Source: a virus. From it: 36,666 nucleotides of DNA. The stretch covers positions 1-36,666 of the IMG/VR virus record IMGVR_UViG_3300012348_000044; one strand, given 5' to 3'. This document shows positions 1 through 36,666 of this stretch, one piece after another. Position numbers and translations under genes: made by a program. The notes under the pieces were generated by a model. The model worked only from the letters and a program-made list of their open reading frames with translations, did no database searches and was not told where the DNA came from. How positions within the stretch are numbered: the first letter of the stretch is position 1; each line of letters opens with the position of its first letter.

Positions 1-55
1 GAGGTTGGCCCGGGTGAGGTCGGCCCCGGCGAGGTAGGCCCCGGCGAGGTTGGCC
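1..55. repeat. Terminal overlap: nt 1-55 are identical to nt 36612-36666 (circular-contig signature)
   Basis: Direct comparison of the two ends: gaggttggcccgggtgaggtcggccccggcgaggtaggccccggcgaggttggcc is present at both. Confidence 0.9.
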
Positions 56-174
56 CGGGCGCTTACGGCTTTTTCAAGCGCATGGCGCATTTGCAATCCT
101 GACGCAGTGTCGTCTGGAAACTCGCATTCAAACAATACAGCGTCAGTGAATCGGTGTTTGATTTGATGTTTCAT
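1..174 (-). CDS. Pentapeptide-repeat protein, N-terminal part (the gene runs off the window start and continues at the window end)
   Basis: ATG at 174-172 on the complement. Translation MKHQIKHRFTDAVLFECEFPDDTASGLQMRHALEKAVSARANLAGAYLAGADLTRANL stays open to nt 1. After removing the 55-nt terminal overlap, the frame is continuous with the minus-strand ORF that stops at 36147 (58 + 154 = 212 aa). Confidence 0.8.
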   Translation of the reverse strand, partial: MKHQIKHRFTDAVLFECEFPDDTASGLQMRHALEKAVSARANLAGAYLAGADLTRANL

Positions 175-182
175 GTTTGCTT

Positions 183-824
183 TCAAAAAGTATGCTCGTT
201 GGCGATGCGCTCAATGACCTGGCGATAGTATTCACGGCCAGCCTCGACCTTTTCGATAATCTTGGCCTCCATTGCCTTGTCGCGCTCTTGATGCAGCAGG
301 GTGACGCGCAACTCGGGCGTGATGTGGTCAATGACGTGGAGTTGGCGATCCTCGTACCCGATCAATTCCTCTGGCGTGGAGACAAGGCAATAAGCAATGG
401 CCGCGCTGTCAACATCCCAAAGCCACATATAGGCCGCAAGCTGCCATGTGTAGGTCTTGTTTTCGCCATCCTCTGCAAGCGCCGGGAACGTGGCAAGCGA
501 CCACGAGGACTTGATGTCAATTATTTTTGACCCGGTGAAGATGTCGCACTCGCCGGTGATCCATTCATTGGTCTTGCGCTCGGTGTTCTTGGTGTAGCTG
601 GTGAACAAAACCGAGTTGAGCAATTCGATGGACTGATCCTCGACCTGGATGCCCTTCTGCATGGGCTTGCTGGAGATACGCTCGTCGTACCCGTACACCG
701 CCTCTTTTGCCAGCTTGGTGATGGCGGTCTTTGCGCCGACTGACAGCGTTTCTGTTTTGGCTTTGGGCTCGGTCATCAGGTCGGCCAGCGACGATGCGCG
801 GAAAATGATTTTGTGATCAAGCAT
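183..824 (-). CDS. Recombination exonuclease, PD-(D/E)XK (YqaJ / lambda Exo-like)
   Basis: D..(D/E)xK-type motif GECDIFTGSKIIDIKSS. It lies directly downstream of the ERF gene, overlapping it by 8 nt. Start chosen at the internal ATG 824 (MLDHKIIF...) because GGAGG lies 9 nt upstream; the ORF-track start at 860 would overlap erf by 44 nt. Confidence 0.65.
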   Translation of the reverse strand: MLDHKIIFRASSLADLMTEPKAKTETLSVGAKTAITKLAKEAVYGYDERISSKPMQKGIQVEDQSIELLNSVLFTSYTKNTERKTNEWITGECDIFTGSKIIDIKSSWSLATFPALAEDGENKTYTWQLAAYMWLWDVDSAAIAYCLVSTPEELIGYEDRQLHVIDHITPELRVTLLHQERDKAMEAKIIEKVEAGREYYRQVIERIANEHTF

Positions 825-2258: not shown

Positions 2259-2372
2259 CGCTTACGGGCTGAAAGCGGATGCTGTGAGCGTGGCGTATTG
2301 CAATGCACGGGCACCGTGCCACCAACAGACGCAGCAAGTAGGCCCACCATTTTTTTAACCAAGGAGAAAAGC

Positions 2373-2714
2373 ATGAACCAAGAGCAAATCGCCCGTGTCT
2401 GCCACGAAGTTAACCGCGCTTATTGCGAATCGCTTGGAGACAACAGCCAGCCATCATGGGAAGGCGCTCCTCAGTGGCAAAAAGACAGCGCCATGCTTGG
2501 CGTGAAATTGCACACTGAGAATGATGTTGGCCCAGAGGCAAGTCATCAAAGCTGGATGGCGCAAAAAGTTGCTGAAGGTTGGATTTATGGCCCAACAAAA
2601 GACCCAGAGGCAAAGACACACCATTGCATCGTGCCATTTGATATGCTGCCACGCGAGCAACAGGCCAAGGATTTCATTTTCCGAGCCGTTGTCCATGCTT
2701 TGCGCTCTGCTTGA
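2373..2714 (+). CDS. RyR-domain (ryanodine-receptor repeat-like) protein
   Basis: SWMAQKVAEGWIYGPTKDPEAKTHHCIVPFDMLPREQQAKD matches the W..EK..GW.YG...D...K.HP.LVPY..L pattern of the RyR domain. AAGGAG lies upstream of ATG 2373. Confidence 0.65.
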   Translation: MNQEQIARVCHEVNRAYCESLGDNSQPSWEGAPQWQKDSAMLGVKLHTENDVGPEASHQSWMAQKVAEGWIYGPTKDPEAKTHHCIVPFDMLPREQQAKDFIFRAVVHALRSA

Positions 2715-4671: not shown

Positions 4672-4871
4672 AGCCGATATGCGCTCTTTGTGGCCGACCA
4701 ACCAGGCCATTTGTCATGATTGGCCGCGAGGCTATTGGCCCGAAGTGCGCAGCCAAATCTGGCCTGATGCCAAAGTCCTGGCGCAATAGTCGGCTGAAAT
4801 TTATCAAGCCGATCAAAGCTGAAAGCAATGGCCAAGGCGATTTATTCGCCGACCAAAAGGAAATCACATGA
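4668..4871 (+). CDS. Hypothetical small Cys-containing protein
   Basis: GTG start in a GTGA overlap. (M)KPICALCGRPTRPFVMIGREAIGPKCAAK. Ends in an ATGA overlap with the MTase-like gene. Confidence 0.35.
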   Translation: MKPICALCGRPTRPFVMIGREAIGPKCAAKSGLMPKSWRNSRLKFIKPIKAESNGQGDLFADQKEIT

Positions 4872-5443
4872 AAAAATTTAAAGTATTGATTGGTTGTGAA
4901 TATTCAGGCGCAGTGCGCGATGAATTCATCAAGCGAGGCCATGATGCAATGAGTTGCGATTTGTTGGATACAGACGCGCCGGGGCCTCATTACAAAGGCA
5001 GTGTTTTTGATGTCATTGACTATCCTTGGGATATTGCGATCTTTCACCCGCCATGCACACATCTGTCGGTGTCAGGCGCTCGTCACTTTGCGGCAAAGTG
5101 GACGGATGGAAGGCAAGCCGAAGCCGTGGCGTTTTTTATGAAATTGCAGCGGGCATCAGCACACATCCCAAAAACGGCCACCGAAAACCCAGTTTGCATT
5201 ATGTCAAGCCTTTGGCGCAAGCCAGACCAAGTAATCCAGCCGTGGCAATATGGGCACGGAGAAACCAAGGCAACTTGTCTGTGGTTAAAAGGCTTGCCAT
5301 TGCTGACACCGACCAACATCGTTGAAGGCCGAGAGCAGCGCATCCATTTGATGCCACCAAGCGAAGACCGCTGGAAGTTGCGCAGCACGACTTATGCTGG
5401 GATTGCAGCCGCAATGGCCGAGCAGTGGGGTAATCATGATTGA
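4868..5443 (+). CDS. Miniature DNA cytosine-C5 methyltransferase-like protein
   Basis: FHPPCTHLSVSG resembles motif IV (PC.. catalytic Cys). TENP resembles motif VI (ENV). N-terminal VLIGCEYSGAVRDEF sits at the motif I position. At only 191 aa it has no room for a TRD or motifs IX-X. Confidence 0.6.
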   Translation: MKKFKVLIGCEYSGAVRDEFIKRGHDAMSCDLLDTDAPGPHYKGSVFDVIDYPWDIAIFHPPCTHLSVSGARHFAAKWTDGRQAEAVAFFMKLQRASAHIPKTATENPVCIMSSLWRKPDQVIQPWQYGHGETKATCLWLKGLPLLTPTNIVEGREQRIHLMPPSEDRWKLRSTTYAGIAAAMAEQWGNHD

Positions 5444-5792
5444 ACTAACACTGCCTTGGCCATCGCCAGACCTAAGCCCAAACGTGCGCGGCCACTGGGC
5501 CATAAAAGCCCGAGCAGCCAAAGCCTACCGCCAGGCATGCTACATCACCGCAAAGCAGCAAGGCCTGACTCGCATTGACGCGCCACGCCTGCACGCCACG
5601 ATCACTTTCTACCCGCCATCAAAGCGCAGGATTGACCTTGACAACTGCATCGCCAGGATCAAGCAAGCCATCGACGCTGTGGCCGAGATCAGCGGCGTTG
5701 ACGACAGCAAGTGGACGATGAGTTTTTCCTTCGCTGGTGAGGTCGGCGGGATGGTGAAAATAAATCTTGAACCGATGTTTTTGGTCGGTTAA
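5436..5792 (+). CDS. rusA: RusA-family Holliday junction resolvase
   Basis: LPWPSPDLSPNVRGHWA...KAYR and IDLDNCIARIKQAIDAV...DD are typical RusA motifs. ATG 5436 overlaps the upstream gene by 8 nt. Confidence 0.8.
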   Translation: MIELTLPWPSPDLSPNVRGHWAIKARAAKAYRQACYITAKQQGLTRIDAPRLHATITFYPPSKRRIDLDNCIARIKQAIDAVAEISGVDDSKWTMSFSFAGEVGGMVKINLEPMFLVG

Positions 5793-5806
5793 GATATCAA
5801 CTTGAT

Positions 5807-5848
5807 GGCTTAGATGTTGCACGGACTAGGTGCAGATACATCTAAGCC
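5807..5848 (+). promoter_or_regulatory. Long stem-loop (16 bp stem with a 3-nt bulge, loop GGACTAG)
   Basis: GGCTTAGATGT (5807-5817) pairs with ACATCTAAGCC (5838-5848). TGCAC (5818-5822) pairs with GTGCA (5830-5834). No U-run follows. Confidence 0.6.
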
Positions 5849-5860
5849 TTCATTGGCTGA

Positions 5861-5911
5861 CCCATGAATGTCCGATGCTAGTCCCATCGGCTTTCATGGG
5901 TTTTCTTTTTT
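5861..5911 (+). terminator. Rho-independent terminator closing the early/nin block
   Basis: CCCATGAA (5861-5868) pairs with TTCATGGG (5893-5900). An inner stem pairs CCGATG with CATCGG, with loop CTAGTCC. The hairpin is followed by TTTTCTTTTTT (5901-5911). Confidence 0.75.
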
Positions 5912-5923
5912 GGAGAGTCAGAA

Positions 5924-8119
5924 GTGGAATATGAAGATTTTGTGGCGGCCAAGCGCCGAAAAGAAGTGGCGACAGGCCATCAACCTGGCGACCTGAACGA
6001 GCATTTGTTCGACTTTCAGCACGCCATTGTTAGCTGGGCCGTTCGTCGTGGCCGCGCAGCCATTTTTGCCGATACAGGACTTGGCAAGACGCTGATGCAG
6101 CTTTCATGGGCCGATGAGGTGGCAAGCCACACTGGCGGGTCTGTGCTGGTGCTGGCCCCGCTTGCCGTGTCTGAGCAGACAATTGAGCAAGGATCCACGT
6201 TTGGCATTGAGGTCAAGCGCGTGCCTCATTCTGGCGTGATTGATTCGCCCGGCGTCTGGATCACAAACTACGAGCGCATGGATGCCATCGACTTTACCGA
6301 GTTGCATGGCCTGGTGCTGGATGAATCATCCATCCTGAAGGCTCACGATGGCAAAACGCGCCAGCACATCATCACATCGGCTCAAGGCGTGCCTTATCGC
6401 TTGAGTTGCACGGCCACGCCATCACCCAATGATTTTGAGGAGCTTGGCAACCAGTGCGAGTTTTTGGGCGTCATGACTCGCACCGAGATGCTGGCGACTT
6501 ATTTTGTCAACGACACCGGAGACACTGGAACATGGCGACTCAAGGGATGGGGTGCGTCAAAGTTCTGGGAATGGATGGGATCATGGGCCGTGGTGCTGCG
6601 CAATCCATCTGATTTGGGATTTGATGGCGCAAGGTATGAGTTGCCGCCACTTGAGTATTTTGAGCACGTTATTCAGACTGAGGCCATTGAAGGCGATTTG
6701 TTCTCGCGCCCAGCCATGACCATGACCGAGCGAAGAAAGGCCCAGCGAGATAGCATTGAGGCGCGATGCCGCGCATTGGCGGATGTTGTCAATGCCGATA
6801 AATCAGAGCCTTGGATTATTTGGTGTCACTTGAATGATGAAGCTGAATTGCTCAAGCAGCTGATAGACGATTCTGTGAATGTTCAGGGGTCTGACTCGCC
6901 AGAATCAAAAGCAAAAAACTTGCTCTCATTTGCGCATGGTGACATTCGAGTCATGATTAGCAAGGCAAAAATAGCAGGGTATGGCCTCAATTGGCAGCAC
7001 TGCGCGCGCATGGCATTTGTCGGCCTAGACGACTCATTTGAAAAGTTCTACCAGGCCGTTCGCCGGTGCTACCGATTCGGACAAAAGCGCAATGTGCAGG
7101 TGCATATGTTCACCGCAGAAAACGAAGGCCAGATTCTGGCAAACCTTAAACGCAAAGAAGTGCAACATCACGAGATGAGCGCAAACATGATCGAACACAT
7201 GAAAGACATTATGAACAAAGAACTCGCAGGCCAAGAAAACATCGTGGACGAATACCGCGAAGACACATTCAACGGCGATGGCTTTACCGTCCACTTGGGT
7301 GACTGCGTGAAGTGGTCACGCCGCATGGCCGACAACAGCGTGGACTATTCTGTTTTCTCGCCGCCATTCGCCGATCTGTTTGTTTACTCAAACAGCGATC
7401 ACGACATGGGCAACTGCAAGAACGATCAAGAATTTGTCGAGCAGTTGAAGTTCCTGATCTCTGAGCTTTTCCGAGTTTTGAAGCCTGGCCGCAATGTCTC
7501 ATTCCACTGCATGAACTTGCCGACAACAAAGATGCGCCAAGGCTTTATCGGCCTGCGTGATTTCCGTGGAGATTTGATCCGCGCGTTCCAAGATGCTGGA
7601 TTCATCTATCACTCTGAGGTCTGCATCTGGAAAGATCCAGTTGTCGCCATGCAGCGCACAAAGGCACTTGGTCTGCTGCACAAGACAATCCGCGAAAACA
7701 GCACCATGAGCCGCATGGGCCTGCCTGATTACGTCGTGACCATGCGAAAGCCTGGAGAGATTGAGGAGCGCGTCACGCACGGCGATGATTTGCCCGTCCA
7801 TCTGTGGCAAAAGTACGCCAGCCCAATCTGGGATGACATCGACCAAGGCCGCACGCTGAACAAAATGCCAGCGCGTGACGAGAACGACGAGAAGCATATG
7901 TGCCCGCTTCAGCTTGATGTGATTGAGCGCTGCATCCACCTGTGGACAAACAAAGGCGATGTTGTTTTCAGCCCATTCACCGGCATTGGCTCTGAAGGCT
8001 ATACAGCCATCAAGATGGGCCGGAAGTTTGTTGGCACTGAACTCAAGCCGCAATACTTTGAGCTGGCCTGTCTCAACATCACTGACGCATCAAAAGAGCA
8101 GCAAGGATTGTTTGCTTGA
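5924..8119 (+). CDS. SNF2-family ATPase/helicase fused to a beta-class N6A/N4C DNA methyltransferase
   Basis: N-terminal half: ADTGLGKT (motif I), VLDESS (II), CTATPSPN (III), GYGLNWQ (V), QAVRRCYRFGQKRNV (VI). C-terminal half: SPPFADLFVY (motif IV, (D/N/S)PP(Y/F)), then CPLQLDVIERCIHLWTNKGDVVFSPFTGIGSEG (motif I, FxGxG). GTG start with a GGAGAG RBS. Confidence 0.85.
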   Translation: MEYEDFVAAKRRKEVATGHQPGDLNEHLFDFQHAIVSWAVRRGRAAIFADTGLGKTLMQLSWADEVASHTGGSVLVLAPLAVSEQTIEQGSTFGIEVKRVPHSGVIDSPGVWITNYERMDAIDFTELHGLVLDESSILKAHDGKTRQHIITSAQGVPYRLSCTATPSPNDFEELGNQCEFLGVMTRTEMLATYFVNDTGDTGTWRLKGWGASKFWEWMGSWAVVLRNPSDLGFDGARYELPPLEYFEHVIQTEAIEGDLFSRPAMTMTERRKAQRDSIEARCRALADVVNADKSEPWIIWCHLNDEAELLKQLIDDSVNVQGSDSPESKAKNLLSFAHGDIRVMISKAKIAGYGLNWQHCARMAFVGLDDSFEKFYQAVRRCYRFGQKRNVQVHMFTAENEGQILANLKRKEVQHHEMSANMIEHMKDIMNKELAGQENIVDEYREDTFNGDGFTVHLGDCVKWSRRMADNSVDYSVFSPPFADLFVYSNSDHDMGNCKNDQEFVEQLKFLISELFRVLKPGRNVSFHCMNLPTTKMRQGFIGLRDFRGDLIRAFQDAGFIYHSEVCIWKDPVVAMQRTKALGLLHKTIRENSTMSRMGLPDYVVTMRKPGEIEERVTHGDDLPVHLWQKYASPIWDDIDQGRTLNKMPARDENDEKHMCPLQLDVIERCIHLWTNKGDVVFSPFTGIGSEGYTAIKMGRKFVGTELKPQYFELACLNITDASKEQQGLFA

Positions 8120-8226
8120 TGTAAAATAATGCGAAACGAGGCTAGGTCGGGACTGATCCCCTGACCGAAAAGCGAACTCCCCGCCTGCCTTTGTTTCTTT
8201 TCTGGGAGATTTGCGGAGATGCCATC

Positions 8227-8898
8227 GTGCATTATTACAAGAGAAATCTTGGCGATTACGCCAAAAAATGTGGCCGCCTATCAATGCTTCAGCACGGAGC
8301 GTACACGCTTCTGATTGATTCGTGCTATGACCGTGAAAAATTCCCAACGCTTGATGAAGCCATTGAATGGACATGGGCCAGCACTGAAGCTGAGATTGAG
8401 GCTGTAAAGTTTGTCCTTGGCCGCTTTTTTACGCTGTCTCCAGACGGTGAGTATGTGCAAGATCGCATCCTTGCAGAGCTTCTTGAGTACCACTCAAAAG
8501 CCGACACAAACAAACGAATCGCACAAGAACGCGAGGCGAAGCGTAAAGAAAAAAGCACGAGTCGTTCACATACCGTAAACGAAGCGCCACCTAACCAAGA
8601 ACCAAGAACCATAAACCAAGAACCAGTTATTTGTGCCCCGCCTGTCGGCAAGGCCAAAGGAAAAAGGCTTTCGCCTGATTGGCAACTGCCAAAAGCATGG
8701 GGAGAGTGGACGCTGGAGACAATGGGCTGGGAGACGGCAACGGTCAGACTTGAGGCTGATAAGTTTCGAGACTACTGGGTGGCGACAAGTGGGCGAAACG
8801 CCGCCAAGCTGGATTGGGAAGCCACTTGGCGCAACTGGTGTCGAAATGCCAAGGTTCAGGCAACGCCTCAGCCATCCTTGCTGGCAGGTGGAATATGA
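8227..8898 (+). CDS. DUF1376 (YdaU-like) protein with a DnaT-like C-terminal domain; replication initiation / primosome protein
   Basis: HYYKRNLGDYAKKCGRLSMLQHGAYTLLID is the DUF1376 signature. The C-terminus has W..P..W..W....F.DYW......DWEATWRNWCRNA (DnaT-like). GTG 8227 is preceded by GGAG; the ORF-track start at 8191 is an alternative. Confidence 0.7.
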   Translation: MHYYKRNLGDYAKKCGRLSMLQHGAYTLLIDSCYDREKFPTLDEAIEWTWASTEAEIEAVKFVLGRFFTLSPDGEYVQDRILAELLEYHSKADTNKRIAQEREAKRKEKSTSRSHTVNEAPPNQEPRTINQEPVICAPPVGKAKGKRLSPDWQLPKAWGEWTLETMGWETATVRLEADKFRDYWVATSGRNAAKLDWEATWRNWCRNAKVQATPQPSLLAGGI

Positions 8899-9272
8899 AG
8901 GGACACATTGACCTCATCAAAATGAGGATGGCAAGCAAGAAGCCAGCAAGTGTGGCAATCTACGATTACCCGTTTGACACCGACTGGACAAAATACGGCG
9001 ACTTGCCAAGGGTATGCGTTCACGGTGAGGCGGTAGTTGACCTTGATTTGCGCTTTGTGATCGGCATGGTTGTTTTCATTGAAAGCAACAGCGAAGCGAG
9101 AGCCGATCAGTTGCTAGAAAAATGTATCGCCATGGGCGCGTCTATCGTGGCCGCGAGCAGCTACCCAGCGCCAAAGCAAGATCCGTATTCAAGAGCCGCA
9201 TCAAAAAGCCATTTGTTTTTTAAAGATTTTGGAGGTCAGATTGACAACAATCATCACGTCAGATTCGATTGA
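8895..9272 (+). CDS. Hypothetical protein in the replication module
   Basis: ATGA overlap with the upstream gene. 125 aa. No motif recognised. Confidence 0.5.
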   Translation: MKGHIDLIKMRMASKKPASVAIYDYPFDTDWTKYGDLPRVCVHGEAVVDLDLRFVIGMVVFIESNSEARADQLLEKCIAMGASIVAASSYPAPKQDPYSRAASKSHLFFKDFGGQIDNNHHVRFD

Positions 9273-10221
9273 TTTCAGGCAGTACCTGAAAGAGTCGGAT
9301 GCAAAGGCGAACGTGAAGAACGCCGCCGACTACACGCAAACGCTCAAAGACAGACTGCGCATCAAGCAAAACGAGAAGAAGGTTTTTTTGCCATGGCCGA
9401 AGACTCGAGACAATTTTGATTTCCGTCCAGGTGAGGTCACTGTTTGGGCTGGTCAGAACGGCCACGGCAAGAGCCTTGTCACCAGCATGGTGGCGCTTTC
9501 ACTGATCGGCCAAGAGCAAAAATTGTGCATTGCCAGTTTTGAGATGAAGCCGCACATGACAATTCAGCGCATGGCGCGAATGTATGCGGGCATGAATCCA
9601 TTTTCTCCAGAGTTCCAAGGCAGGGATGGTATCCAAGCAATTGACGAGCTATACGACGAATTCGGCGGGTGGGTTGACAAGCGCCTATGGATTTATGACC
9701 AGCAAGGCACAGCAGACCGTGAGCTTGTCACTGGCATGGTCAGGTATTGCGCCGTTGAGCTTGGCTTGAATCATGTATTCGTGGACAACTTGGCGAAGGT
9801 GGTAAGTGGTGAGGATGACTACAACGGGCAAAAAGCGTTTGTCGATGAAATGACCAGCATCGCCCGAGATCATCAAATCCACGTTCACATCGTCCACCAC
9901 CTGAAAAAACCAAGCAAAGAGACAGAGCTTCCCGACAAAAATGACCTCAAGGGGTCTGGTGCTATCGCCGACCAGGTTGACAACATTATCTTGGTTTTCC
10001 GCAACAAAGCCAAAGAGATCGCCATCCGGTCTGGCAAGAGTGGCGAAAAAGGCGCAGAACCCGATCAAGTTTTGTTTGTTCGCAAGCAGCGCAACTACGA
10101 AGGCTCAAGCGATGGTGAGCCGCAGATCAATTTGTGGTTTGACATGGACAGCCAGCAATACCGCGAATCGAGTGATGCGTATCCATTGTTTTTTCCCAAT
10201 TACCCTCACTACAAAACATGA
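9241..10221 (+). CDS. DnaB-like / T7 gp4-like replicative helicase (RecA-fold C-terminal domain)
   Basis: Walker A GQNGHGKS, Walker B-like HVFVDNL, HIVHHLKKPS, LKGSGAIADQVDNIILV. TTG 9241 has GGAGG 5 nt upstream; the ORF-track start is TTG 9229. Confidence 0.8.
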   Translation: MTTIITSDSIDFRQYLKESDAKANVKNAADYTQTLKDRLRIKQNEKKVFLPWPKTRDNFDFRPGEVTVWAGQNGHGKSLVTSMVALSLIGQEQKLCIASFEMKPHMTIQRMARMYAGMNPFSPEFQGRDGIQAIDELYDEFGGWVDKRLWIYDQQGTADRELVTGMVRYCAVELGLNHVFVDNLAKVVSGEDDYNGQKAFVDEMTSIARDHQIHVHIVHHLKKPSKETELPDKNDLKGSGAIADQVDNIILVFRNKAKEIAIRSGKSGEKGAEPDQVLFVRKQRNYEGSSDGEPQINLWFDMDSQQYRESSDAYPLFFPNYPHYKT

Positions 10222-34826: not shown

Positions 34827-35269
34827 ACGAAGCCTCGCAAGTTTGGCGGCTTGTAATCCTTGCCCTTACCAATCTTGCCGCCTTCAAGAATCACAGCCAC
34901 GCCGTTTTCCAGCTTTGAATCGTTGGAATCAATGACCGCCTGATCGGCTGAGTCCTTGTCAAACCCGGCGAAGAACGCCACGCCGTTTCCAGTGACTTCA
35001 ATGTCGCACAAAGCATCGAGCGCATCGACGCGCAAGTGAATTGGGATATAGACCATCTGCTCGCCGAGCTTGAGCTTTGACGCGAACCATTCAAGGTCAA
35101 GGCGCGTCCGATCAAGCAGCTTTGCATAGCCCTCGCTATCAGTGCGCAGGCACGCCAGCAACTCGCAAAATTCCTCAATCTGACAGCCAATGGCCGTGTT
35201 CAGGTTTTCTGGTGTTTTGGTTTTTCCGCATGCCTCAAGCCATGCCGCTGTTCTTTGGTAATTCGTCAT
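34823..35269 (-). CDS. MazG-like all-alpha NTP pyrophosphohydrolase
   Basis: EExxE (QIEEFCEL) and DALxD (VDALDALCDIEV) metal-binding helices. C-terminal DSNDSKL....GKIGKGKDYKPPNL is typical of phage MazG-like proteins. Confidence 0.55.
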   Translation of the reverse strand: MTNYQRTAAWLEACGKTKTPENLNTAIGCQIEEFCELLACLRTDSEGYAKLLDRTRLDLEWFASKLKLGEQMVYIPIHLRVDALDALCDIEVTGNGVAFFAGFDKDSADQAVIDSNDSKLENGVAVILEGGKIGKGKDYKPPNLRGFV

Positions 35270-36138
35270 TTCATTTCCCCGCCAAGTGTTAATATAACCG
35301 CATTGATTGCATCCCCAAGTGTGGCCGTCATGATCGCCACATCGGCGTCAAAAGCATCGCAATCGTGCTCGCCTTGACTGACGGTCAGGATGTTGATTTT
35401 CTTGAGCCGCATCGTGTCAGTCAGCGTAAATTCAATCTGATCGCCATGAGCAAGTGCCAGCGATGTCGGCAGCTTGCCCTCTGAAACATGATTGCGAACA
35501 TCCTTGCAGTCCAGATTGTGATGCGTGAATTTGACCTTTGACACATCTTCTCCAACTGACTCAAGAACGCAATCGCGGCCAATGGACAAACCGCACGGCA
35601 TTTCGTCATGCTTGCCAAGCAACCATTGAGTCATTGCCACTTGTGGCGATGTGACCGTGTTCACCAAGTACAACTTCAGGCTTGGAATGGCTTGCATCAG
35701 CGCAGAAACAAAGTCATCTGCTTTGGACTGGCTGATTGTGTCAATCGCCAAAATACCATCATCACGGAGCCATCCGAGGACCGCTGTTTGTTTAGGGAAC
35801 GCTTGAGGCAGCAAAGCAGTCCGAGCATCATCCATGATTTCTCGGCGCTCTTTTTTGCCTGGCTTGCGCCCTTGCGATTGTTCAATCTCGTAAACCATAT
35901 CGTCAACAGCATCGCGCAAAACTTTGCTTGGGACTGACTTGGTTTCGATCATCAGCTTGACGATGCGCTCACCGTTGACGATTTCAACCATTGGCCCGTG
36001 ATTGATGCCGCGAGGCTCGACCCATCCGACTGACTTTTCTTGCAGATCGTTGCACGGAACAAACCGCGCAAAGTCGCCAAAGTTTGGCAAAAGGTATGAT
36101 TCGATTTCGTATCGGTAAATTGTGGCTGACTTAAACAT
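35266..36138 (-). CDS. rdgC: Recombination-associated protein RdgC
   Basis: MFKSATIYR...F.PC..LQEKSVGWVEP....G.....V.GERIVKLMIETK.VP..V........IE..QGRKPGKKERREI.D.....LLPQAFPK is the RdgC pattern. AAGGAG lies 4 nt upstream of ATG 36138. Confidence 0.8.
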   Translation of the reverse strand: MFKSATIYRYEIESYLLPNFGDFARFVPCNDLQEKSVGWVEPRGINHGPMVEIVNGERIVKLMIETKSVPSKVLRDAVDDMVYEIEQSQGRKPGKKERREIMDDARTALLPQAFPKQTAVLGWLRDDGILAIDTISQSKADDFVSALMQAIPSLKLYLVNTVTSPQVAMTQWLLGKHDEMPCGLSIGRDCVLESVGEDVSKVKFTHHNLDCKDVRNHVSEGKLPTSLALAHGDQIEFTLTDTMRLKKINILTVSQGEHDCDAFDADVAIMTATLGDAINAVILTLGGEMK

Positions 36139-36146
36139 GATGCTCC

Positions 36147-36666
36147 TTATTTCCAGATTGATGCATGGCACTTGATCAACTCAAGAGCCGCCAGATATTC
36201 TTTTGAGTGATCGTTGTCTTGATGCTCATTTGACAGCTTTTCTGTGAATTCATCAACAGTTCCAAAAAAGCATCCTGCGCGAAGCATGATGCCCTTGTCG
36301 GTGTTGTAGCTTGTGAAGTATGCGCAGCGCGATCCTATCGGCCCAATCATAAAAATTGGACGCTTGCCGATCAATTTGGCCCCGGCGAGGTCGGCCCCGG
36401 CGAGGTTGGCCCGGGTGATGTCGGCCCCGGCGAGGTAGGCCCCGGCGAGGTTGGCCCCGGTGAGGTCGGCCCCGGCGAGGTAGGCCCCGGCGAGGTTGGC
36501 CCCGTAGAGGTTGGCCCCGTAGAGGTTGGCCCCGTCGAGGTTGGCCCCGTCGAGGTTGGCCCCGGCGAGGTAGGCCCCGGCGAGGTTGGCCCCGGTGAGG
36601 TCGGCCCCGTAGAGGTTGGCCCGGGTGAGGTCGGCCCCGGCGAGGTAGGCCCCGGCGAGGTTGGCC
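36147..36666 (-). CDS. Pentapeptide-repeat protein, repeat array plus C-terminal domain (5' end continues at nt 174-1 through the circular junction)
   Basis: The minus-strand frame is open from the window end. It reads ...YGADLTGANLAGAYLAGANLDGANLDGANLYGANLYGANLAGAYLAGADLTGANLAGAYLAGADITRANLAGADLAGAKL, then IGKRPIFMIGPIGSRCAYFTSYNTDKGIMLRAGCFFGTVDEFTEKLSNEHQDNDHSKEYLAALELIKCHASIWK, then a stop (TAA, complement of 36147-36149). Confidence 0.85.
   Translation of the reverse strand, partial: ANLAGAYLAGADLTRANLYGADLTGANLAGAYLAGANLDGANLDGANLYGANLYGANLAGAYLAGADLTGANLAGAYLAGADITRANLAGADLAGAKLIGKRPIFMIGPIGSRCAYFTSYNTDKGIMLRAGCFFGTVDEFTEKLSNEHQDNDHSKEYLAALELIKCHASIWK
36376..36666. repeat. 15-nt tandem repeat array (consensus gaggtNggccccggc), about 19 units in this part of the window
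   Basis: Directly visible. The units differ at only 1-3 positions. The array is the DNA image of the pentapeptide repeats on the minus strand. Confidence 0.95.

Follow-up and report, generated by a model that had tools for sequence, protein, structure and literature searches.

A fusion gene in an early operon

The window, that is, the whole 36,666-nucleotide stretch analysed (IMG/VR record IMGVR_UViG_3300012348_000044), carries a gene whose product joins an SNF2-type ATPase to a beta-class amino-methyltransferase in a single polypeptide (Table 1). The open reading frame starts with GTG. The region between this gene and that of the upstream RusA-like resolvase is highly structured, with an RNA fold of -54 kcal/mol for positions 5793-5923 (z = -6.2 relative to shuffles), and includes two hairpins, the second of which is followed by TTTTCTTTTTT and resembles an intrinsic terminator; a terminator scan also gave a match at 5883-5900 together with the T-run. 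An Rfam scan of the window returned 0 matches. The first-pass annotation had made this the first gene after an early terminator, which the T-run hairpin directly 5' renders plausible, but the element is not a conserved feature in relatives at ~85% protein identity and in some relatives is replaced by overlapping upstream ORFs.

The fusion gene is located in an early recombination/replication operon. It had been described as heading the replication block, which is apt for the downstream DUF1376 and DnaB-like genes but not for the ERF, SSB and RusA genes that lie upstream. The DUF1376 neighbour is kept in six of the related loci (L002-L007), and at the loci examined the ATPase-methylase pair is always found among genes for SSB, RecT/ERF, RusA, primase, DnaB or replication initiators. 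The same operon encodes a second putative DNA methyltransferase, assigned through PHROG_757, for which Pfam, NCBIfam, PADLOC and PDB sequence searches gave no match.

Table 1. Coordinates of the fusion gene, its modules and motifs, and adjacent features
Feature	Residues (aa)	Position (nt)	Strand	Basis
Second putative DNA methyltransferase, same operon	191 aa	4868..5443	+	PHROG_757 at 3.4e-69
RusA-like Holliday junction resolvase, upstream		5394..5792	+	PHROG_34 at 5.9e-22; weak Pfam RusA match
Hairpin 1, RusA/SNF2-MTase intergenic region		5803..5852	+	Strong; RNA fold
Hairpin 2 and T-run, intrinsic-terminator-like, 13 nt before start codon		5859..5911	+	Fold
Shine-Dalgarno GGAGAG, 6 nt before GTG		5912..5917	+	Sequence read
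SNF2 ATPase/beta-class amino-MTase fusion gene	731 aa + stop	5924..8119	+	ORF list, Pfam, PHROG_16
ATPase lobe 1	29-170	6008..6433	+	Q motif Q32, Walker A, Walker B, motif III TATP 163-166
Walker A GLGKT	52-56	6077-6091	+	Motif positions
Walker B DESS	133-136	6320-6331	+	Motif positions
Helical/beta insert, motifs III-IV	171-292	6434..6799	+	Model secondary structure; Foldseek
ATPase lobe 2	293-398	6800..7117	+	GLNWQ 354-358, motif VI 377-387; Pfam Helicase_C
Motif VI QAVRRCYRFGQ	377-387	7052-7084	+	Motif positions
Linker, long alpha-helix 399-434 and loop	399-445	7118..7258	+	Model
Beta-class amino-methyltransferase domain	446-731	7259..8116	+	Pfam PF01555, 2zie alignment, Foldseek
Motif IV SPPF	479-482	7358-7369	+	Motif positions
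Middle/TRD region, conserved	531-650		+	In MTase domain
Motif X	~655-675		+	In MTase domain
Motif I FSPFTGIGSEG	682-692	7967-7999	+	Motif positions
DUF1376 primosomal/replication-initiation protein, downstream		8191..8898	+	Pfam, PHROG
DnaB-like replicative helicase		9229..10221	+	Pfam DnaB_C/AAA_25, PHROG_239/19

Two intact modules joined by a variable linker

Motifs, Pfam domains and an AlphaFold2 model (pLDDT 88.2, pTM 0.78 for the fusion) agree on an intact and complete SNF2-type ATPase at residues ~29-398, as the first-pass annotation had claimed, and the five motifs on which that claim rested were all recovered (Table 1; TATPSPN at 163-169). The protein has conserved forms of helicase motifs Q, I (GxGKT), II (DExx), III, V and VI (QxxxRxxRxGQ), and Q32, G52, G54, K55, D133, E134, Q358, Q377, R381 and R384 are invariant across 43 diverse family members (35-52% identity). 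Pfam recognises SNF2-rel_dom marginally at residues 32-182 (26.5 bits against a cutoff of 24.9) and Helicase_C at 283-386 (30.5 bits against a gathering threshold of 23.5). In the model, motifs III and IV are separated by ~130 residues, an extended span typical of Snf2 ATPases, and the top Foldseek matches of this half are Snf2 remodelers without exception (E 9e-19 to 1e-15). Judged by motifs, Pfam and the modelled two-lobe fold, the ATPase half is a Snf2-family SF2 ATPase, for which ATP hydrolysis stimulated by double-stranded DNA, and translocation along it that leaves the strands paired, are predicted.

The methyltransferase fold spans residues 446-726, within which Pfam N6_N4_Mtase (PF01555) matches at 473-715 (63.8 bits, E 2.9e-17; cutoff 26.7). 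Its assignment as a beta-class amino-methyltransferase was borne out by this match, by the conserved catalytic tetrapeptide and by a match to the Thermus thermophilus protein TTHA0409 (2zie/2zif; Foldseek TM 0.83, profile E 1.7e-31). The beta-class motif order noted at first pass also holds, with SPPF preceding FxGxG (685-689) in a collinear, residue-level alignment to 2zie. A profile of the domain searched against the PDB matched TTHA0409 alone over its full length, characterised enzymes matching in the SAM-binding part only. Among the 43 diverse members, S479, P481, F482, H658, F685 and G687 are invariant, and motif IV reads SPPF in 38 and S[VTI]PF in the other five. In the mycobacteriophage and Pseudomonas clades, at ~32% identity, it reads SIPF. 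Motif IV is SPPY in N4CMT and DPPY in CcrM. Serine occupies its first position in every member examined here, and the family-wide S-x-P-F motif therefore leans towards a methylase that is probably N4-cytosine-specific, although the Ser versus Asp/Asn rule for N4C and N6A enzymes is a tendency. The first-pass annotation had not chosen between N6A and N4C. The DNA-contacting middle/TRD region is conserved to the same degree as the catalytic cores, and this across phyla. Homodimerisation by way of a "mortise and tenon" interface is characteristic of beta-class methyltransferases (PMC10406627; PMC7544214).

The linker between the modules is the least conserved segment of the protein, with a mean column conservation of 0.30 compared to 0.54-0.67 elsewhere, and is where, in Fancypants, EBPR podovirus 1 and locus L013, the two modules part into separate genes.

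A widespread phage family

PHROG_16 spans residues 5-726 of the fusion, and metagenome searches returned thousands of relatives; the representatives number ~12,000, many of them full-length in a single stretch. Proteins 100% identical to the 731-residue fusion are present on other contigs, and a scan of genome contigs for a host returned only MAGs, whose labels were mixed (Proteobacteria, Pseudomonadales, Legionella, Rhodoferax). Among GenBank phages the protein is matched best at 52.5% identity; at the nucleotide level the gene has no relatives among GenBank phages, to which the first 25 kb of the window is similar in short fragments only. Family proteins are often labelled plain "DNA helicase" and in some cases "DNA helicase/methylase". 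Phage "DNA helicase/methylase" proteins within PHROG_16 include DosHalletts gp68 and Saal gp68 of Mycobacterium phages, Synechococcus phage S-CBS3 gp40, Pseudomonas phage phi297 gp10, proteins of Flavobacterium columnare phages FCV/FCOV, and EBPR podovirus 1 gp52/gp50. These named phage proteins share collinear full-length homology with the fusion at 30-52% identity, together with the order Snf2 then beta-class methyltransferase, the S-x-P-F motif IV and a site in the early/replication region. We found no qualitative difference between them and the fusion, this phage being a new lineage. The exact fusion is therefore a member of an already annotated, very large phage family, and the novelty implied at first pass finds no support, as PHROG_16, 307 GenBank phage genomes and thousands of proteins from metagenomes show the same architecture. 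Literature on the Snf2/beta-class methyltransferase phage fusion yielded comparative-genomic statements only, and experimental data on any member were not found in it.

The two modules are rarely found apart. The ATPase half used alone as query matched 310 phage genomes at a coverage of at least 80%, while the full-length query, again at a coverage of at least 80% and with both halves fused or adjacent, matched 307 GenBank phage genomes. Hence this ATPase subfamily is accompanied by an adjoining methylase in ~99% (307/310) of the phage genomes that have it. In Fancypants the halves are two genes (gp69/gp70) separated by TAA and 7 nt, in some relatives an endonuclease gene is inserted between the ATPase and methylase genes, and in a Campylobacter MAG the module order is swapped (locus L014). 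Because the pair recurs as a fusion, as two genes parted by a stop codon or by an endonuclease gene, and in swapped order, the coupling of ATPase and methylase looks functional.

Proposed role and comparison with known systems

On balance, the fusion most likely serves to methylate phage DNA under replication, with the assistance of ATP, as a counter to host restriction, a reading that we hold with moderate confidence and for which we infer the substrate, the modified base, the ATP dependence and the protection. The fusion gene would be transcribed together with the early recombination/replication genes, probably by read-through of the terminator-like hairpin. In the protein, a Snf2 motor tethered through the variable alpha-helical linker to the C-terminal methylase may load the methylase, move it along the duplex or remove proteins bound there, such that phage DNA could be methylated during replication, fast enough to evade host restriction. 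The first-pass annotation had likewise proposed self-protection; its two domains stand, and the role goes as far as fitting the context, namely conserved sites, linkage, position and site avoidance. With respect to the latter, the genome contains 218 6-bp palindromes against 524 expected, and among 4-bp palindromes only GCGC, GGCC and TTAA are not depleted. We rejected these three as a guide to the methylase target, the signal being too weak to give a specificity. Such strong palindrome avoidance indicates restriction-modification pressure and argues against blanket protection by the enzyme. As the phage avoids most 6-bp palindromes and has a second putative methyltransferase, protection by this enzyme would be partial.

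Stand-alone Snf2 helicases are frequent in phage replication modules, and the motor could therefore act in replication independently of the methylase. The Snf2 module would then be primarily a replication/recombination remodeler, acting on forks or junctions or removing proteins ahead of the replisome, as is presumed of stand-alone phage SNF2 helicases. The methylase would be a passenger that gains co-expression or localisation to the fork, and it would methylate without need for ATP hydrolysis. The position of the gene between those for RusA and DUF1376/DnaB is consistent with this, as are relatives adjoining RecT, a Rad50-like recombinase, SSB or primase, phage structural neighbours that are stand-alone SNF2 helicases, and phages in which the halves work as separate polypeptides. 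Nevertheless, we judge it unlikely, since an ATPase subfamily almost never found without its methyltransferase is hard to square with an independent core replication function and the phage already has a DnaB-like helicase. Still less probable is that the enzyme writes an epigenetic mark for the phage's own use rather than for escape from restriction, for instance to let a phage nuclease tell phage DNA from host DNA, to bring about superinfection exclusion, or to control packaging or gene expression. Nucleases are indeed nearby (YbcO and RusA here, HNH genes directly upstream in actinophages), and a TRD that equals the catalytic cores in its conservation across phyla is unusual for methyltransferases that track diverse restriction-modification specificities. 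However, the loci examined show no consistent linkage to a nuclease partner, the HNH and endonuclease genes resemble mobile homing elements, and PADLOC defence-system models matched generic methyltransferases only. The frequent plain name "DNA helicase" might suggest a methyltransferase domain that has lost catalysis or has a substrate other than DNA, in which case the protein would be a helicase carrying a degenerate appendage for DNA binding. This is highly improbable given the invariant residues of motif IV and the SAM-binding motif I, a fold matching a SAM-bound methylase (TM 0.83) and a Pfam score far above the cutoff; in either half the catalytic residues are intact and conserved.

A broader reading, which we put forward tentatively and regard as rather unlikely, is that the family could be a distinct enzymatic class with a Snf2 motor and an N4C beta-class methylase in obligatory coupling, ATP-dependent and processive on replicating DNA, and with a conserved, possibly very short or relaxed recognition across phages of Proteobacteria, Bacteroidota, Cyanobacteria and Actinobacteria. 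If so, it would be an ATP-driven "writer" without biochemically characterised precedent among stand-alone methyltransferases. Taken alone, the gene is one more member of an abundant, annotated phage family, the interest of which lies in its spread, with thousands of members among the phages of four or more bacterial phyla, and its near-complete motor-methylase linkage. If ATP hydrolysis drives, targets or speeds methylation, this would account for a counter-restriction device that is common in phages, and the family might yield a processive methylation tool. The idea of coupling is already published and we do not expect it to surprise specialists; translocation-coupled methylation by methyltransferase-SNF2 dyads was hypothesised earlier (Iyer et al., 2017; PMC5512222).

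Residues ~1-440 find their best structural matches in the Snf2 remodelers BRG1, CSB, Mot1, Chd1, ISWI, INO80 and SsoRad54 (E ~1e-18, per-target TM up to 0.69, identity 14-18%), with which the ATPase shares motifs and the extended motif III-IV span, but at ~400 residues it is shorter and lacks their accessory chromatin-binding domains. TTHA0409 (2zie/2zif/2zig), a putative beta-class methylase, is the sole structure that matches the whole methyltransferase domain and has motif IV SPPY, with serine first as in the fusion; in contrast to the fusion, it is a stand-alone protein of 297 residues without an ATPase. An SF2 ATPase motor is also paired with an amino-methyltransferase in restriction-modification enzymes of Type III (EcoP15I) and Type ISP (LlaGI-type), the Mod subunit of EcoP15I being beta-class (PMC7544214), but these enzymes include a nuclease, and their motor serves cleavage communication rather than methylation. 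Pfam, NCBIfam and PADLOC identified no nuclease domain or Res-like partner here. We rejected membership of Type III, Type ISP, DISARM or BREX systems, which are marked by an associated nuclease domain or by partners such as Res, Mrr, DrmA-C and PglZ, as there were only generic methyltransferase and weak helicase matches in a neighbourhood of replication genes.

The P1 DarB/polyvalent-protein dyad (PMC5512222) likewise places an amino-methyltransferase and a SWI2/SNF2-type ATPase in one phage polypeptide, and its role is anti-restriction, protecting against type I enzymes. DarB is a 2255-residue protein packaged in the virion, in which a gamma-class, EcoKI/TaqI-like N6A methyltransferase (PF02384, NPP[YF]) lies N-terminal to the ATPase and is accompanied by LPD36 (PF02384/PF07669 at 145-290, SNF2 from 849), whereas the 731-residue fusion is encoded in an early operon and has PF01555 C-terminal to its ATPase. 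In a BLASTP comparison of the fusion with DarB, the alignments were confined to the Walker A region and to chance segments (best E 0.008). Comparison with P1 darB thus ruled out a DarB-like dyad on methyltransferase class and domain order, and the differences in class, order and size without meaningful sequence similarity mark the fusion as independent of DarB and the two as convergent.

Architecture and family of the fusion protein

The fusion gene is one long open reading frame in the six-frame ORF list, beginning with GTG and preceded by a GGAGAG Shine-Dalgarno sequence; this start is credible since homologue alignments begin at residue 1-3. The first-pass annotation had read the product as a Snf2-type ATPase joined to a beta-class amino-methyltransferase (MTase), and the ORF, every quoted motif (all located where it had placed them), Pfam and a structure model all agree. 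Assignment to the beta class is correct, as motif IV lies ahead of motif I and the protein aligns collinearly with TTHA0409 (2zie), a putative beta-class methylase of Thermus thermophilus. An AlphaFold2 model using an alignment of 43 diverse relatives as input is confident (mean pLDDT 88.2, pTM 0.78). Its top Foldseek matches in the PDB are nearly all Snf2-family motors (BRG1/BAF, CSB, Mot1, Chd1, ISWI, INO80; E 1e-18 to 1e-15), and TTHA0409 matches the C-terminal third (TM 0.83 per target).

Features of the window, the fusion protein and separated ATPase-methylase pairs
Feature	Position	Strand	Remark
RyR-domain protein gene	2298-2714	+	
PHROG_757 protein gene	4868-5443	+	191 aa
Intergenic region	5793-5923	+	131 nt, -54 kcal/mol, z = -6.2
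Shine-Dalgarno	5912-5917		GGAGAG
Fusion gene	5924..8119	+	731 aa
RdgC homologue gene	35266-36171	-	PF04381, E 3e-72
Pentapeptide-repeat protein gene	~36205-36666 joined to 1-210	-	~200 aa, across junction
Pfam SNF2-rel_dom	aa 32-182		26.5 bits, barely over 24.9 cutoff
GLGKT	aa 52-56		
DESS	aa 133-136		
TATPSPN	aa 163-169		
Pfam Helicase_C	aa 283-386		30.5 bits
GLNWQ	aa 354-358		
QAVRRCYRFGQ	aa 377-387		
Linker helix	aa 399-434		column conservation 0.30
Pfam N6_N4_Mtase PF01555	aa 473-715		63.8 bits
SPPF	aa 479-482		motif IV
MTase middle region	aa 531-650		conservation 0.54
FSPFTGIGSEG	aa 682-692		motif I
Fancypants pair	L016 4270-4300		two genes, TAA + 7 nt between
hattifnatt9-1 pair	L021 2959-6024		endonuclease gene inserted
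Campylobacter MAG pair	L014 6001-8579		methylase gene first

PHROG_16 ('DNA helicase') spans aa 5-726 as one stretch. By tblastn against 50,697 GenBank phage records the protein matched 420, of which 307 at ≥80% coverage, including phages of Mycobacterium, Flavobacterium, Arthrobacter, Pseudomonas, Gordonia and Synechococcus, all at <60% identity. Several of these records (e.g. Saal, Cerasum, DosHalletts, Richie) already carry the annotation 'DNA helicase/methylase' or 'DNA helicase/methyltransferase', and others 'DNA methylase N-4'. A word-indexed search of metagenome proteins gave at least 8000 matches, the best 120 all full-length at ≥86% identity, and an exhaustive search of the 50%-identity representatives gave 12,168 at E≤1e-3 and 1,282 at E≤1e-30. 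Judged by sequence comparison, the fusion protein is a member of a known, abundant phage family and no isolated oddity. Some representatives (P0123, P0128, P0136 and others) are 1060-1130 aa long and carry inserts of ~320 aa, located behind residue ~54, ~126 or ~293, that are probably inteins, consistent with the actinophage PF01555 methylases among intein hosts on record.

Genomic setting and restriction pressure

The window has the appearance of a complete phage genome, with genes for large terminase, portal, HK97-type capsid, tape measure, ERF, SSB and RdgC (the last full-length) and a terminal overlap of 55 bp. No GenBank phage is related to it at the nucleotide level; near-identical 35-37 kb contigs exist in metagenomes. 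The RyR-domain gene is the sole stretch with a nucleotide match to another phage (81.6%, from Manatee Spring). The termini form an exact direct repeat inside a GC-rich repeat of 15-nt period, whose repeat number at the junction may be an assembly artefact. The pentapeptide-repeat protein encoded there (ANLxGAxLxGADL...), whose N- and C-terminal parts lie outside the repeat, may mimic DNA.

The early terminator proposed ahead of the fusion gene is plausible, because the predicted fold of the intergenic region has two strong hairpins, the second followed by UUUUCUUUUUU; the element ends 13 nt upstream of the start codon. It has no Rfam match, and relatives at ~85% protein identity do not share it. 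Such a terminator would imply read-through or antiterminated expression of the fusion gene. The gene had also been placed at the head of the replication block. A DUF1376 primosomal/initiator gene, also present in relatives, and a DnaB-like helicase gene do follow it, but SSB, DUF1367, YbcO, a PHROG_757 putative methyltransferase and RusA are encoded upstream in the same direction. With recombination/replication genes on both sides, the fusion gene therefore lies inside the early region without strictly heading it; ERF is on the opposite strand. In distant phages the pairs are flanked by SSB, RecT, Rad50-like recombinase, RepA/DnaC/primase and replication-initiator genes.

The PHROG_757 protein, which would be a second putative methylase in the same operon, matches the PHROG_757 'DNA methyltransferase' family (E 3e-69) and has no match in Pfam, NCBIfam, PADLOC or PDB sequences. 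It is far below canonical C5 methylase length, and C5-MTase-like motifs (LIGCEYSG, FHPPCTHLS, TENPV) were picked out by eye. Five close relatives' loci (L002-L006, 87% protein identity) have additional methylase genes (Dam-like PF05869, C5 PF00145) immediately behind the fusion gene. They also encode a homologue of Acb3 (PF25187), and ERF is replaced by a RecT/YqaJ module.

The palindrome content makes it evident that this genome is under restriction pressure. The 218 palindromes of 6 bp compare with an expectation of 524, and of the 33 with an adequate expected count, 22 fall short of half of it; no copy of CGGCCG, GCCGGC, CTGCAG, CCGCGG or GTCGAC is present, and AAGCTT and GGCGCC each have a single one. 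GATC is depleted (130 observed, 214 expected), as are CGCG and CATG, the only non-depleted 4-bp palindromes being GCGC, GGCC and TTAA. This avoidance argues against blanket protection by the fusion enzyme.

Target base, coupling and proposed role

Motif IV starts with serine in every family member examined, as SPPF in 38 and S[VTI]PF in 5 of 43, and as SIPF in the actinophage and Pseudomonas clades (~32% identical). The motif of M.PvuII is likewise SPPF. N4-cytosine enzymes such as N4CMT have a Ser-Pro-Pro-Tyr/Phe motif, and CcrM has DPPY (PMC10406627). A serine-first motif IV thus favours 4mC as the product, although only as a tendency. The MTase-domain profile has a full-length match only to TTHA0409 (E 1.7e-31), and for characterised N6A and N4C enzymes the match is confined to its SAM-binding part. 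DNA-recognition loops of beta-class enzymes sit in the middle region, and because conservation there is on a par with that of the catalytic cores, we infer a recognition mode common to the whole family that would not track individual host R-M systems.

Three lines of evidence suggest that the two halves are functionally coupled: catalytic conservation, near-obligate linkage and persistence through rearrangement. Across 43 members (35-52% identity), ATPase residues Q32, G52, G54, K55, D133, E134, Q358, Q377, R381 and R384 and methylase residues S479, P481, F482, H658, F685 and G687 are invariant, which places both catalytic centres under purifying selection. The ATPase half alone (aa 1-440) matches 310 phage genomes at ≥80% coverage and the whole protein finds both halves together in 307, so that linkage is nearly obligate. 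Mycobacterium phage Fancypants encodes the halves as two genes that have their own ribosome-binding site and a spacing of translational-coupling type. The Flavobacterium phage hattifnatt9-1 has an intervening gene, EBPR podovirus 1 and two MAG loci have the halves in different reading frames, and a Campylobacter MAG has the order swapped. Split points of separated pairs fall in the linker (aa ~410-454), a long helix and the least conserved segment (0.54-0.67 elsewhere).

On balance we lean towards a fusion, expressed early, of a Snf2 dsDNA translocase with a beta-class methylase that is probably N4C. The enzyme would modify phage DNA during replication, with the motor providing access, processivity or speed, and the outcome would be partial shielding from host restriction. 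That the motor is mainly a replication/recombination remodeler with the methylase as passenger seems unlikely, being weakened by the 307/310 linkage, and a role of the enzyme in setting a phage-internal epigenetic or self-marking signal is more doubtful still. A methylase that is inactive or acts on a non-DNA substrate is highly improbable, inactivity being contradicted by the conserved catalytic residues.

Comparison with known systems

The general concept that SWI2/SNF2 ATPases of phages and plasmids are coupled to DNA methylases, so that methylation would go along with translocation and counter restriction, has been put forward previously, with phage P1 DarB as the archetype of such dyads (Iyer et al., 2017; PMC5512222). 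The role suggested by the first-pass annotation is partly supported and plausible, and was proposed earlier for analogous proteins. A component of Type III, Type ISP, DISARM or BREX systems was ruled out, as no nuclease or system-specific partner was detected. We found no experimental studies on any SNF2/beta-MTase family member in the literature; the interest lies in a very common phage enzyme family, apparently without biochemical study, and in what service the motor renders the methylase. DarB is a 2255-aa virion protein with a gamma-class PF02384/Eco57I-type methylase (145-290) and, further along, SNF2 from 849 and Helicase_C from 1455. The fusion protein is alike in concept, but its domain order is opposite, its methylase is of a different class and it has no real sequence similarity to DarB; it therefore falls outside the DarB family, and is a fusion independent of DarB.
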